Source: an uncultured Actinomycetes bacterium
Lineage (GTDB): Bacteria > Actinomycetota > Acidimicrobiia > IMCC26256 > JACDBD01
Direction: 5' to 3'
Length of the DNA: 64,000 nucleotides
Assembly (NCBI GenBank): GCA_963747195.1
Contig: CAVVDV010000005.1
Coordinates: 601,704 to 665,703 of the forward strand
Shown piece after piece: positions 29,303-32,457 of this stretch (position 1 is the first letter of the stretch; every line of letters begins with the position of its first letter). Both the position numbers and the translations under genes were made by a program. The notes under the pieces are model-generated. The model did no database searches. It saw only the letters and a list, made by a program, of their open reading frames with translations, and was not told where the DNA came from.

Positions 29303-29912
29303 CTACCCTGGACGGCGTGAGCGTTCCCGCGTACAAGGAGTGGGCCGTCATCGTGCACGCGCTCCTCGAGGGTGAGCAGATCCTCGACGTGCGCAAGGGC
29401 GGTCTCCGTGAAGACGGCCGGCGCTTCGGGCTCAAGTCGACGCGCGTGTGGCTCTATCCGACGGTCGAGCACCAGCGGCCCGAGCTGCTGAAGCCGGCGT
29501 ACCGCCCGATGGTCGACCTCGCCGCAGGTTCGCCCGTCGGCGAGCCGATCCGGATCGACGGCTGGGCCGACATCGTCGGCGCGGCGACGATCACCGATCC
29601 CGAGCAGCTTGCGGCGCTCGACTCCAAGCTCATCTGGACGCTCGAGTACGCCGAGTCACGGCTGCAGTGGAAGAAGCGCCAGCCGCTGTGGGTGCTGGCG
29701 ATGCGCGTCCACCGGTTGATCGAGCCGCTCGAGGTGCCGTGGCGCGACGAGTACGGCGGCTGCACGTCGTGGGTCGACCTGCTCGACCCGCTCCCCGACC
29801 CCGACGAGCTCAAGAGCGAGCCCGCGCTGTCCGACACCGCGTTCGCGGCGCGGATGAAGGGCGGTCGACGGCGCGCTCGGACACGCCGCTGGAGCAGCCC
29901 GCGCTCGACTGA
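29299..29912 (+). CDS. DUF1802 family protein
   Basis: AYKEWAVIVHALLEGEQILDVRKGGLRE, LYPTVEHQ, EYGGCTSWV. Confidence 0.85.
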
Positions 29913-29925
29913 GCCCGCGTCGCCG

Positions 29926-30153
29926 CTACGCGCCGTCGTCCTCGCGGGCCTGGATCGATCGGTGCGGGTGGTACCCGCGGTTCCGGGCCTCGGCGAGGGT
30001 GTCGGGCGCGAACGCGGCGAACGCCTCCGACGCGACGAGCTCGTCGATGACCGGCTCGAGACCTGCGCTCTCGGTGAGGTCGAGGTCGTACACCGTCTGG
30101 TTCCGCTTGTCGCCGAGGTAGCGGAAGCTCTCGAATCGGGATGGCCGGCTCAC
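29926..30153 (-). CDS. Hypothetical 75-aa protein
   Basis: AGGAGG RBS then GTG: MSRPSRFESFRYLGDKRNQTVYDLD...FAPDTLAEARNRGYHP; protein-like composition. Confidence 0.75.
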   Translation of the reverse strand: MSRPSRFESFRYLGDKRNQTVYDLDLTESAGLEPVIDELVASEAFAAFAPDTLAEARNRGYHPHRSIQAREDDGA

Positions 30154-30210
30154 TCGAGCCCTCCTGTCTCTCCGGGGCCGCGGCGGCACGAGAGTACGCT
30201 GCCCGTCGCG

Positions 30211-31653
30211 ATGAGCCCCGACCCGTCCGTCTCCGCGGCGTTGGAAGTCGCGTCCATCCTGAGCGATCTGCTCGACGAGCCGATCGTGATCGCCGACGTG
30301 GGCTGCCGCTGGGGGTTCGCCGACACGTGGGAGCAGCTCGGCGGCCGGTGCCGCGCCATCGGGTTCGAGCCCGACGAGGACGAGTGCGCAGCGCTGCGGG
30401 AGCGTTACCACGACCGCCCCTGGGTCGAGATCGTCGCCCAGGGCCTCGGTCGGGAGGCGGGCACGGAGACGATCCACATCACGCGCGAGCCGGCGTGCTC
30501 GTCGCTCTACGAGCCGCTCGACGACGTCATCGACCGCCACCCGCGCCTCGAGCCCCAGCGGCTGGCCGACAACCAGCAGATCGAGGTCGTCACGCTCGAC
30601 GAGTGGTGCCGGCGCAGCGGCGTGGACCGCATCGACTTCATCAAGCTCGACACGCAGGGATCGGAGCTCGACGTCCTCCGGGGCGCCGCCCGCACCCTGG
30701 ACGGCGTCATCGCGGTGCAGACCGAGGTCGAGTTCAACCGGATGTACGAGGGGCAGCCGCTGTTCGGCGACGTCGACCGGTTCCTCCGTGACCGTGGCTT
30801 CATGCTGTGGCACCTCGACAACCTGAGCCACCATCGCCAGCGCGGCGCGCGCTCGGGGCTCCAGAGCTGCAATCAGCTGTTCGACTTCGACGTCGCCCGC
30901 TTCAATCGGCGCGCCGGCCAGCTGTTCTGGGCCGACGCCCTCTTCGTGCGCGCCGACGTCGCCCGACCGCAGCCCGCGACCGACTGGCGCGAGGCGCTTC
31001 GACACGCGTGCGTCACCGCCGCCCTCGGGCTCGACGACCTCGCCGGGCTCGCCCTCGACCTCCACCACCGCGATCTCGACGGAGAGGTGCGCGAGACGGT
31101 GGAAGCGGTCCGCGCCGTCCTGCCCGAGCCCGACCACGAGACGGAGTGGCTGACGTCGCTCGTCACCCGCGACGGGTACCAACCCGACGAGACCGGCGCC
31201 GGCGGCGGTGTCCTCGACGGAGGACCTGGTGGTGCCGCTCGGCGAGCCGATCGTCGGCGCCGGCTGGCGCGAGCCGCACCGGCTCGGTGACGGGGCAGGG
31301 TCGGTGGACGGGGCCGGGGCGGCGGGCGTGGATCGACGTCCCGCTCCAACTCCCGCCCGGGACCCTCGTCGAGCTCGTGGCCGTCGACGCCCACGACCGC
31401 CGCGGCTTCGCCGGCGTCGGCATCGACGTGAACGGCGAGGAGCTCGAGCTGGTGCAGACGCCCACGCGCCGAGGGCACGGTCCTGTCGGGGACGGTCCCG
31501 CTTCGCTACAAGTCCGACCGGAGCTTCACGCGGGTCTCGATCCGGACCCCGCCGCCGGGCCAGCCTCACGGCAGCCCCGATCCGCGCAAGCTCGGCATCG
31601 CCGTCACCGAGCTCCGCCTCCACGCCCCCGCCCGCCCCGAGCGCGGCGGCTGA
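30211..31653 (+). CDS. FkbM-family methyltransferase with C-terminal accessory domain (frameshifted)
   Basis: IADVGCRWG, IGFEPDEDEC, CSSLYEP, IDFIKLDTQGSELDVLRGA, EVEFNRMYEGQPLFGDVD, QLFWADALF. Confidence 0.88.
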
Positions 31654-31664
31654 CGAACGCGAGC

Positions 31665-31689
31665 GAGGGGGCGCACGAAGCGCCCCCTC
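31665..31689. terminator. Perfect 10-bp GC hairpin between convergent units (probable terminator)
   Basis: GAGGGGGCGC-acgaa-GCGCCCCCTC, 11 nt after the FkbM stop; no U-tract. Confidence 0.6.
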
Positions 31690-31918
31690 ACCCACTTGTA
31701 CGGCTGAAACGTCTTCGCCGACCGGGATTGCAACGGGTGGGACAACTCCCCGTCCGGACGGCAACGGTGCGGCGGTTTGAACTCCGCCAGGCGGTCCAGC
31801 CTGACACGCCCGCACGTGCGGACGCGACGACGACCTAACGGCCGCGCACCTCCAGAGTCCCGCGTTGCTCATGCATCAGCTGGACCACCTCCTTTCCCTG
31901 GTACTGCAACTTGTACCA
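31665..31918 (-). ncRNA. Candidate structured RNA or small-ORF mRNA (13 codons, MHEQRGTLEVRGR at 31876-31835) with extended 16S-complementary segment
   Basis: Several hairpins, long inverted repeat 31789-31806 / 31874-31890, GAAAGGAGGTGGTCCAGC on the minus strand, terminal hairpin; see findings. Confidence 0.5.
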
Positions 31919-31983
31919 CGGACGGAGCCGCGACGCGTGACAGTTCTGAGGAGAAATTCGGTGGGTTGTCGGCGGGCGACCGG

Positions 31984-32457
31984 TCAGTCGCAGCCGATCT
32001 GCGGGGCGATCTCGGCGGGGACGCCCTGGCCCTCGCACAGCTTGCCCGCGCTCCGGTTGAGGGCGACCCAGTGGTCGCCTTCGGCCCGGTACAGGGTGAA
32101 GGTCGGCGGGCTGTACCCCTTGACCTGCGAGCTCGTGGCCCAGCCGCCGACGCACTTCTGCGGGGTGATCGTGCCGTCGGGCGACCCGAACTTCGCCGTG
32201 AAGGCGGCCGTGAGCGCCTCGGGCGTGCACGGCGGCTGCGGGGCGGTCGTCGGGGGCGCCGGCGTGGTGTCGGGAGCGGCTGTGGTGGACGACGGCGCCG
32301 TGGTCGACGGCGCGGCCGTGGTCGTCGGCGCGGCGGTGGTCGCGGTGGTGTCGCCCGTCTGGCGGGCCTGGACCTGGGGATCGCTCGTGCCGCACGCGGC
32401 TGCGGCCAGCGCGAGCCCGCCGAGCAGCAGTCCGGTGGTGATCAGGCGTCGTCTCAT
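31984..32457 (-). CDS. Lipoprotein with Thr/Pro-rich linker and small Cys-containing C-terminal domain
   Basis: MRRRLITTGLLLGGLALAAAA-C lipobox; TTTAAP repeats; four further Cys. Confidence 0.8.
   Translation of the reverse strand: MRRRLITTGLLLGGLALAAAACGTSDPQVQARQTGDTTATTAAPTTTAAPSTTAPSSTTAAPDTTPAPPTTAPQPPCTPEALTAAFTAKFGSPDGTITPQKCVGGWATSSQVKGYSPPTFTLYRAEGDHWVALNRSAGKLCEGQGVPAEIAPQIGCD

Follow-up and report, generated by a model that had tools for sequence, protein, structure and literature searches.

Here, we describe an element of about 246 nucleotides (nt) on the minus strand of a 64,000-nt stretch of DNA (positions 601,704 to 665,703 of contig CAVVDV010000005.1; hereafter the window) from an uncultured Actinomycetes bacterium of the class Acidimicrobiia. 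The element lies between a convergent methyltransferase gene and a lipoprotein-like open reading frame (ORF), and it comprises a promoter-like start, a long complement of the 3' end of 16S rRNA, a 13-codon micro-ORF, a series of hairpins and a terminal hairpin (Table 1). As judged from its sequence and modelled structure, the RNA is the Acidimicrobiia form of the Ms_IGR-5 family (Rfam RF02471), a continuum of forms of which the Rfam model covers a part. That this identity and the anatomy set out below are right we hold with high confidence.

The window belongs to a 3.27-Mb metagenome-assembled genome (MAG; G000) of 10 contigs that is 60% complete. Its G+C content is 71%, and the region 31700-31960 is free of the third-codon-position G+C bias shown by the flanking genes on both sides. 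A first-pass annotation, made from the letters alone, had noted five features here (a 5' hairpin, an 18-nt complement of 16S rRNA, a tiny ORF, a downstream segment able to sequester the region around its start, and further hairpins ending in a terminal one), and all five are present on the minus strand where it placed them. It had read them as a stand-alone RNA, had not recognised in it any of several known RNA classes, and had taken it for the best candidate for an undescribed system in the window. The conserved and covarying helices and the terminator reported below bear out the first of these claims, and an Rfam scan agrees with the second in that no family reaches its threshold on the window. 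The third does not stand: the RNA is a divergent relative of RF02471 Ms_IGR-5, a small RNA (sRNA) detected in Mycobacterium smegmatis and in streptomycetes.

Table 1. Features of the RNA; all are on the minus strand, with positions counted in the window.
Feature	Positions	Evidence or remark
-10-like hexamer TACAAG, with TGG before it (extended -10-like)	31910..31915	Left arm of the 5' inverted repeat
Whole predicted RNA, ~246 nt	31655..31902	Inferred start A31902 to just beyond the terminator; 3' end not mapped
Helix P1, 5' strand CCAG	31898..31901	Partner CUGG at 31855-31852; 99% of cells paired, covaries phylum-wide
Contiguous 21-nt complement of own 16S 3' tail, GGAAAGGAGGUGGUCCAGCUG	31877..31897	Three G-U pairs; predicted duplex -41.6 kcal/mol
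Core of the 16S complement, GGAGGUGGUCCA	31881..31892	Invariant within the order
13-codon ORF, MHEQRGTLEVRGR	31835..31876	ATG at 31876, TAG at 31837-31835; stop position shared by 140/143 homologues
GGGAC within the ORF	31857..31861	Proposed pseudoknot partner of the Pe loop; alternative partner GGUCC of the 16S complement
Internal GGAGGUG (Glu-Val codons), 9 nt before the stop	31847..31853	GAG GUG, three codons and stop in 140/143
Helix Pb, 5' strand GGUGC	31850-31846	Partner GCACC at 31770-31766; covaries
Hairpin Pc, GCGGCC-GUUA-GGUCGU	31830..31845	Stop codon in loop; 88.9% of cells paired in the order, 84.4% phylum-wide
Variable hairpin, GCGUCCGCACGUGCGGGCGU	31806..31825	In 15/30 rows of alignment A1; gap in the other 15
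16S-tail mimic, UGGACCGCCU	31789..31798	Extended form 31807-31787; can pair with AGGUGGUCCA; predicted duplex -32.6 kcal/mol
Hairpin Pd, GGCGG-AGUUCAAA-CCGCC	31771..31788	Within the order, 99.3% of cells paired and double changes at one pair
3' domain: stacked helices Pg and Ph, hairpin Pe	31711..31764	Double changes at 8/11 Pg/Ph and 2/4 Pe pairs (order)
Hairpin Pe, conserved loop GUUGUCCCA	31734..31752	GUCCC at 31743-31739; 98.3% paired phylum-wide
Terminal 10-bp G+C-rich hairpin, likely terminator without U-tract, then conserved CGCGU	31665..31689	7/7 modelled pairs with double changes

Anatomy and family membership

Conservation between families starts exactly at 31902 (query position 84 of the DNA search), and the Rfam RF02471 consensus begins with an A homologous to A31902. 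Relatives across the phylum carry, in all lineages, a TAnnnT-like hexamer 6-8 nt upstream of this conserved A; after the A come 3-4 variable nucleotides, then a run of purines and GGAGGUGGUCC. By this comparison transcription likely starts at A31902, and the left arm of the inverted repeat TGGTAC-aagttgca-GTACCA (31918-31899, minus strand) would therefore lie in promoter DNA, outside the RNA. The repeat that had been taken for a 5' hairpin is thus present, but it is probably a -10 region together with the first five transcribed bases, i.e. a promoter and start site and not a hairpin of the RNA. At the other end, the terminal hairpin is kept in all aligned rows, with many double changes in both the order and the phylum alignments. 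A scan of the window for E. coli-type consensus promoters and terminators returned none of either, which is uninformative for an actinobacterium of 71% G+C.

The minimum-free-energy fold of the window RNA has a predicted energy of -143.8 kcal/mol (z = -5.15), with none of 200 shuffles being as stable. The secondary structure was refined by hand on 30 full-length homologues within the order (alignment A1), in which 92.4% of cells are paired, compared with 40-53% when strands were slid as a control, and in which 18 pairs show double changes, compared with 9.3 in column shuffles (none of 500 reached 18). In a phylum-wide set (alignment A3), 89.2% of cells are paired (37-46% in the slid controls) and 37 of 46 pairs have double changes, again a number that none of 500 shuffles attained. 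Several helices therefore covary against shuffles in both alignments. These tallies include related genomes, which do not count as independent. Genomes flagged as unpublished (G012, G020, G021, G189, G205, G233, G265, G271, and G300) supplied rows L005 and L015 and part of some tallies, and no conclusion rests on these alone.

Helix P1 joins RNA bases 2-5 to the four bases before the internal GAGGUG and occurs as CCAG/CUGG, CACG/CGUG, CGCG/CGCG, CGAG/CUCG, and CACA/UGUG. In the phylum set its pair 23-105 is GC in 20, CG in 17 and AU in 10 cases, and its pair 24-104 is AU in 26, CG in 16, UA in 4 and GC in 3. Helix Pb encloses the stop-codon hairpin Pc, the variable hairpin, the 16S-like segment and hairpin Pd. 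Within the order, 88.9% of Pc cells are paired and no pair shows double changes; phylum-wide the figures are 84.4% and 6 of 6 pairs, and Pd has double changes at all 5 of its pairs.

We newly propose a pseudoknot between the loop of hairpin Pe, which holds GGUCCC, and the GGGAC segment inside the ORF, which a comparison using model-aligned Pe loops supports. The NGAC of the ORF and the GUCN of the loop change together, as GGAC/GUCC, as AGAC/GUCU in 4 sequences and as CGAC or CGAU/GUCG in 7; one family has AGACC in the ORF and GGUCU in the loop, and another has CGACC or CGAUC with the loop GGUCG. Pair 97-421 is GC in 34, CG in 4 and AU in 2 sequences with none unpaired, whereas in 10 of 50 sequences the alternative pairing, with the 5' GGUCC, is lost.

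Homologues are numerous. A DNA search of 61 related genomes found the RNA in 44, with the core 31902-31831 at 85-90% identity across many families of the order. A covariance model (R1) built from A1, i.e. from the window copy and 29 relatives, matches G000:C5:633357-633624 (window 31654-31921) and is positive in 74 of 151 genomes sampled from the class and in 57 of 151 from the phylum, nearly every positive genome having a single copy. Named public genomes, when scanned with an exact pattern, gave at least 120 loci; among the matches listed, most are MAGs labelled Acidimicrobiia, Ilumatobacteraceae or 'Actinomycetes', and others include Actinomadura macrotermitis and MAGs of Streptosporangiaceae, Frankiaceae and Mycobacteriales. 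At least four loci of that scan (L089, L139, L143, and L156) are chance matches.

The two models recognise each other's members. RF02471 is called at 60-97 bits on four Actinomycetes loci (threshold 45 bits), and it scores 33.6 bits (E = 2.6e-4, sub-threshold) on an Ilumatobacteraceae copy and 18 bits on another relative. In the other direction, R1 scores 29-52 bits overall on RF02471 members (E of 1e-8 to 4e-15), with 34-52 bits on the pattern-selected RF02471 loci and 29-31 bits (E of ~1e-8 to 1e-9) on three mycobacterium-like loci found by RF02471 only. Across the 151 phylum genomes, RF02471 is positive in 43 (above threshold in 19) and the two models overlap at the same coordinates in 29; 28 genomes are positive with R1 only and 14 with RF02471 only, 71 being positive in all. 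Since R1 alone finds 28 of the 71, annotation based on Rfam under-reports the family.

The anatomy is likewise shared. Both the window RNA and Ms_IGR-5 (M. smegmatis IGR-5, or ncMSMEG15794c; Streptomyces lividans SLIV_16488) begin with an A and then the purine-rich GGAGGUG(G/A)UCC, have a nearby start codon opening a frame of 12-15 codons that ends GAG GUG NNN NNN NNN stop, and possess P1 (to the sequence before the internal GAGGUG), Pb, a GUCC-loop hairpin and a terminal G+C-rich hairpin. The Acidimicrobiia form differs in being longer (~246 nt, compared with 184 positions in the RF02471 model), in having its terminator separate from the GUCC-loop hairpin, and in its extra Pc, variable hairpin and Pd and its explicit 16S-tail mimic; it also starts with AUG, where most other classes have UUG.

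Two typical Acidimicrobiia-type copies occur under unexpected labels, at L079 (labelled Burkholderiales; R1 192.9 bits) and L044 (labelled Bifidobacteriaceae; 159.0 bits). A genome sample drawn around the genome of L079 (G329) also behaved as Actinomycetota. It would look as if the taxonomic labels of these MAGs are wrong or their bins mixed, and we have taken the L079 genome as an actinobacterium.

No other known class was detected. A scan of the whole 64-kb window at Rfam gathering thresholds gave no matches (including riboswitches, 6S, signal recognition particle RNA, and RNase P), and a scan of 31550-32050 by E-value gave chance-level matches only, to CC2171 (17.9 bits) and to a snoRNA (14.5 bits). 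ARAGORN found no tRNA and no transfer-messenger RNA in the window, so the RNA does not qualify as the latter.

16S complement, mimic and micro-ORF

The genome's own 16S gene lies on contig C3, and its 3' end reads ...GGUGCGGCUGGAUCACCUCCUUUCU. The first-pass annotation had recognised that GAAAGGAGGUGGUCCAGC (31896-31879, minus strand) complements the 16S tail over 18 nt. This complement is present and is a conserved feature of the family, but it was underestimated: against the genome's own 16S it is contiguous over 21 nt. The duplex of GGAAAGGAGGUGGUCCAGCUG with the 16S tail has a predicted energy of -41.6 kcal/mol, compared with -8.7 for GGAGG alone. When all 8,956 GGAGG sites on both strands of the genome were ranked, the longest complements were 28, 21, 17 and 14 nt; the 28-nt complement is the antisense of the rRNA gene itself and the 21-nt complement is the RNA element, which is therefore the longest outside rDNA and is not due to chance. 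Similarity of the locus to rDNA stops at these 21 nt. Elsewhere in the family the complementarity is 11-16 nt, and the start codon comes 3-7 nt further on. The next-longest site in the genome (17 nt, AAGAAGGAGGTGATCCGG, G000:C3:148391-148403) lies in a stretch that reads as coding, and we have taken it as chance or as an internal Shine-Dalgarno-like site.

The GGUCC beside the Shine-Dalgarno core is invariant even in two families whose internal partner has changed (pair 42-97 is unpaired in 10 of 50 sequences). That the 5' GGUCC stays fixed while its internal partner drifts suggests a constraint imposed from outside the RNA, most simply by the GGAUC of the 16S tail.

Downstream, UGUCAGGCUGGACCGCCU (31806-31789, minus strand) can pair with AGGUGGUCCAGCUGAUG, and this stem forms in the minimum-free-energy fold. 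Within the order, AGGUGGUCCA and UGGACCGCCU are paired in 94.6% of cells, and 5 of the 10 stem pairs vary, on the 3' side alone and always compatibly (G-C to G-U or U-G to U-A). The self-sequestering stem proposed in the first-pass annotation thus finds pairing-compatible changes within the order, whereas the part that also covers the AUG is seen in no genus but the window's own (rows L001-L007, 7 of the 30 in A1) and the mimic is not universal. Other families carry GGACCACCUCC, GGCCACCUCC, UGGAUCACCCCC or GACCACUUCCUU at ~95-125 nt from the 5' end. On these comparisons the switch is a plausible elaboration that varies between lineages; the 16S-like segment is widespread without being universal or defining the family.

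The micro-ORF has a clearer signature. It was assessed in a pool of 152 model-aligned rows (147 distinct sequences), of which 143 combine the 5' motif with the internal GAGGUG. All but three of these 143 place the stop exactly five codons from the GAG, as TAG (112), TGA (22) or TAA (6); the three exceptions are a second copy in one MAG with TGG, a copy with a deletion, and a copy truncated where its contig ends. Of the 140, 138 have an in-frame start at 2-7 nt from GGUCC, and a later start was called in the remaining two, giving 9 codons. Apart from those two calls the ORF is 12-15 codons long, and its variable loop changes length in whole codons. In the 41 sequences found solely by covariance models, the stop is in place in every one (TAG 26, TGA 10, TAA 5), and the start position holds TTG in 27, CTG in 7, ATG in 4, GTG in 2 and ATA in 1. 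A stop that is retained while its identity changes, with UGG almost absent, is as a translated frame predicts and is unlike a purely structural loop. Hence the micro-ORF, a conserved feature of the family and not of the window alone, looks translated in the family, and we infer the same for the window organism.

The peptide is nearly constant within the window's order, as MH[DE]x(1-3)GTLEV[RVH]G[RH]. Phylum-wide, Glu-Val alone is invariant and coincides with the RNA motif GAGGUG; the first half of the peptide and its final three residues are free to vary.

A few genomes hold two copies of the RNA, such as L067 and L084 on two contigs of one Ilumatobacteraceae MAG, and G208 with copies on two contigs. 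In one duplicate pair TGG replaces the stop in the second copy, as expected of a decaying duplicate.

Expression, neighbouring genes and comparable RNAs

Homologues of the RNA are reported to be expressed in model species. IGR-5 lies between MSMEG_5794 and MSMEG_5795 in M. smegmatis, where it is an NAD-capped transcript starting with A and is termed 'validated but yet uncharacterized' (bioRxiv 10.1101/2021.12.14.472595), and it was seen again as ncMSMEG15794c (PMC10454040). Ms_IGR-5 was found by RNA-seq in S. lividans (PMC8079986), and in S. avermitilis it is an sRNA transcription unit of its own (PMC8780764). Ribosome footprints lie on its homologues in M. abscessus and M. smegmatis (PMC4974804). 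A literature search, which covered parts of texts and did not extend to the original description (Li et al. 2013) or to supplements, returned no text giving Ms_IGR-5 a function, an ORF or a 16S complement. As to the window itself, 20 sequencing runs hold part of the stretch and 13 of these are recorded as RNA. Contigs of four soil, groundwater or viral metatranscriptomes cover parts of 31524-32100 at a depth of 2-4; they overrun both ends of the RNA, are strandless and have joints from other organisms.

The downstream neighbour, a plus-strand gene for an FkbM-type methyltransferase, converges on the RNA and ends at 31653; the RNA is therefore not a leader, and the locus has no co-oriented structural gene 3' of the terminator that a leader-peptide attenuator would serve. 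Of 18 Acidimicrobiia loci, 14 have a nearest downstream gene that points towards the RNA, and in 10 of the 18 it is a convergent DUF1802 gene. On the other side, a same-strand ORF of ~150 aa ends 21-82 nt upstream of the RNA in 12 of the 18.

In the window this upstream ORF (31984-32457, minus strand, 157 aa) has a signal-peptide and lipobox-like N-terminus (…LALAAAAC) and a Thr/Pro/Ala-rich linker, is without a Pfam match, and ends 82 nt before the start of the RNA. It is detectable in 10 of 150 related loci, and the ORFs of similar size in the 12 Acidimicrobiia loci are mostly without detectable similarity to it. A DUF1802 (PF08819) gene converges on the RNA in many Acidimicrobiia genomes, and DUF1802 could be detected in 78 of 150 related loci. 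In the window (29329-29856, plus strand) the ORF caller merges this gene and the methyltransferase into a single frame of 732 aa. The methyltransferase (Methyltransf_21; 29950-31653, plus strand) aligns throughout with a 568-aa homologue of locus L061, but its frame is lost at ~31215-31470: residues that match are found in the other two frames there, and two in-frame stops occur, which reflects either a decaying gene or indel errors in a long-contig MAG that would affect other gene calls in the window. A minus-strand ORF of 648 aa (29926-31872, from a second ATG) was rejected as a shadow of the plus-strand genes on codon-position G+C.

The alphaproteobacterial sRNA CC2171 (RF01867), which was detected by Northern blot and is without known function (bioRxiv 10.1101/2022.01.24.477521), resembles the window RNA at its 5' end. 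We have compared it by its Rfam consensus line alone. This begins cAAcaAucGAAAGGAGGUGAUCCAG, with the same complement of the 16S tail near the 5' end, and CC2171 too ends in a terminator hairpin. On the window RNA the CC2171 model scores 17.9 bits, far from its threshold of 75, with the first 25 of 159 positions and the terminal hairpin aligning, and the RNA is thus not a member. CC2171 was not found in 121 Actinomycetota genomes (sample around G329) at E <= 1e-5. Its consensus opens with GAAAGGAGGUGAUCCAG, which is perfectly complementary to the 16S 3' tail, so that two unrelated-looking sRNA families of two phyla have the same 5' motif.

Dual-function sRNAs and leader-peptide RNAs, such as SgrS/SgrT, RNAIII/hld, SR1/SR1P and trp-type leaders such as rnTrpL, likewise place a short translated frame in a structured, terminator-ended transcript, and translation can remodel the RNA. 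The window RNA differs from the leaders in having no co-oriented downstream gene to attenuate, and its frame is far shorter than most peptides of dual-function sRNAs. To our knowledge, an 11-21-nt 16S complement and a mimic in cis are not features of either group. An anti-Shine-Dalgarno-like segment in cis, with mutually exclusive open and closed forms, is also used by those translational riboswitches and RNA thermometers in which the Shine-Dalgarno sequence is sequestered; the window RNA differs from riboswitches in having no ligand pocket or known aptamer among its Rfam results, and in regulating a frame of 13 codons with no further gene.

Proposed mechanism, rivals and significance

In light of this anatomy, what might the RNA do? 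With its tiny frame behind an unusually long ribosome-binding sequence, it probably acts by engaging ribosomes and not as a plain non-coding RNA. We propose a gated micro-ORF RNA that has its core unfolded by its own translation, a mechanism that in our estimation is about evenly balanced between right and wrong. The RNA would be transcribed independently and end at its terminator after ~246 nt, with its first ~25 nt acting as an exceptionally long Shine-Dalgarno sequence ahead of the micro-ORF. Ribosomes would initiate on and translate the micro-ORF, the act of translation, and not the peptide, being the main point. The ORF covers the 3' strand of P1, the GGGAC pseudoknot segment and the 5' strand of Pb; since it runs through the structural core and ends in the Pc loop, a translating ribosome would have to unfold the RNA. 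In the window's lineage, UGGACCGCCU would pair with the Shine-Dalgarno extension to give a closed form that excludes ribosomes, and the open form would bind 30S subunits very tightly. Both the switch between open and closed forms and any downstream effect belong to this hypothesis. Of the two readings suggested in the first-pass annotation, a tightly gated micropeptide mRNA fits the evidence for a real ORF.

Four other explanations must be weighed. The RNA could be a sponge or parking site for 30S subunits, akin to the ribosome sponge or hibernation RNA of the first-pass annotation, its 16S complement titrating or holding them (for instance in stationary phase), with the short ORF serving only to let bound ribosomes run off and the mimic setting an off state. 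The complement being the longest outside rDNA, with its -41.6 kcal/mol duplex, would suit this, as would the invariance of GGAGGUGGUCC while the internal partner drifts, the second GAGGUG, present 9 nt ahead of the stop in 140 of the 143 homologues, which could hold a terminating ribosome, and the footprints on homologues (PMC4974804). However, the gene is single-copy and a titrator would need to be abundant, and start, frame and stop are conserved more strictly, with all three stop codons used, than a sponge needs; we consider it unlikely. Equally unlikely in our view is a plain micropeptide gene, in which a peptide of 12-15 residues acts as the effector and the RNA structure serves only to control how it is made and how stable it is. 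The signature of a conserved stop and frame and the near-constancy of the peptide within the window's order would favour it, but phylum-wide only Glu-Val is fixed, where it coincides with GAGGUG, and the rest varies freely; moreover, ~170 nt of covarying structure 3' of the stop is hard to explain as the 3' untranslated region of a 13-codon gene.

More improbable still is that the RNA is a base-pairing sRNA, one that uses its G-rich 5' end to pair in trans with C-rich targets (C-rich loops of other sRNAs or mRNAs, for example) and whose ORF-like frame is a by-product. Actinobacteria do use C-rich sRNA loops, e.g. 6C, and the 5' end is single-stranded and conserved, both of which speak for such pairing. 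Yet it leaves unexplained the stop retained in three identities and the indels in multiples of three, and the match of the conserved stretch to the 16S tail is specific and unbroken. Finally, the locus might be functionless, either chance G-rich intergenic sequence or a remnant of rDNA, given that among one-mismatch sites its plus strand reads as the 16S 3' end with one change. This is refuted for practical purposes by the phylum-wide conservation with covariation; an rDNA similarity that goes no further than 21 nt speaks against it too, as does the reported expression of homologues in model species (bioRxiv 10.1101/2021.12.14.472595; PMC8079986; PMC8780764).

Returning to the gated micro-ORF RNA and its place in the Ms_IGR-5 family, a number of observations weigh against the picture we have drawn. 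Membership of Ms_IGR-5 runs through model R1 and intermediate sequences, the window copy itself giving no RF02471 match (31550-32050 at E up to 10; G000 at E <= 0.001; threshold 45 bits), and alignment A3 was aligned to R1 and so favours the R1 structure. The covariation of the pseudoknot amounts to two events, one per family. As for the ORF, 102 of the 152 pooled rows were retrieved by a pattern requiring ATGCATGA, which biases the start-codon statistics there, and in 8 of the 41 unbiased sequences CTG or ATA is the sole option at the start position, which is weak for translation; the conserved codons also overlap conserved helices, so that constraint on the peptide and on the RNA is confounded. 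The 5' strand of the sequestering stem never varies and the stem is hence without double changes; when estimated over the whole downstream RNA of each sequence, the 16S-like segment beats shuffles (p <= 0.05) in 18 of 50, and mycobacterium-like copies are without an obvious mimic, their best partner being a terminator strand. Shine-Dalgarno duplexes of this length with 16S rRNA are perhaps sterically impossible, the 3' strand of helix 45 being paired in the ribosome. Expression is reported for homologues of the window copy only.

In addition to an identity for the window RNA, our findings extend what may be said of the family. Ms_IGR-5 is among the few sRNAs, besides 6C, that span mycobacteria to streptomycetes, and it is still called uncharacterised (bioRxiv 10.1101/2021.12.14.472595). 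The family extends into the class Acidimicrobiia, where its form escapes the Rfam model, and all of it carries a frame that bears the signature of translation and is woven into covarying helices and a pseudoknot; in the window genome this frame follows the longest 16S complement outside rDNA. A specific and testable hypothesis is thereby gained for an sRNA of unknown function, and a candidate for the short list of RNAs possibly acting directly on the anti-Shine-Dalgarno tail.

As a broader conjecture, which we offer tentatively and regard as doubtful, Ms_IGR-5 and its relatives may be phylum-wide ribosome-engaging riboregulators, in which 11-21 nt of 16S pairing, a frame translated through a pseudoknotted core and a mimic competing for the Shine-Dalgarno sequence would let the nascent fold report or buffer the supply of free 30S subunits. 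If true, this would be a sensor or titrator of translation capacity without a described counterpart, and the 5' motif of CC2171 would be a convergent or very old second example.

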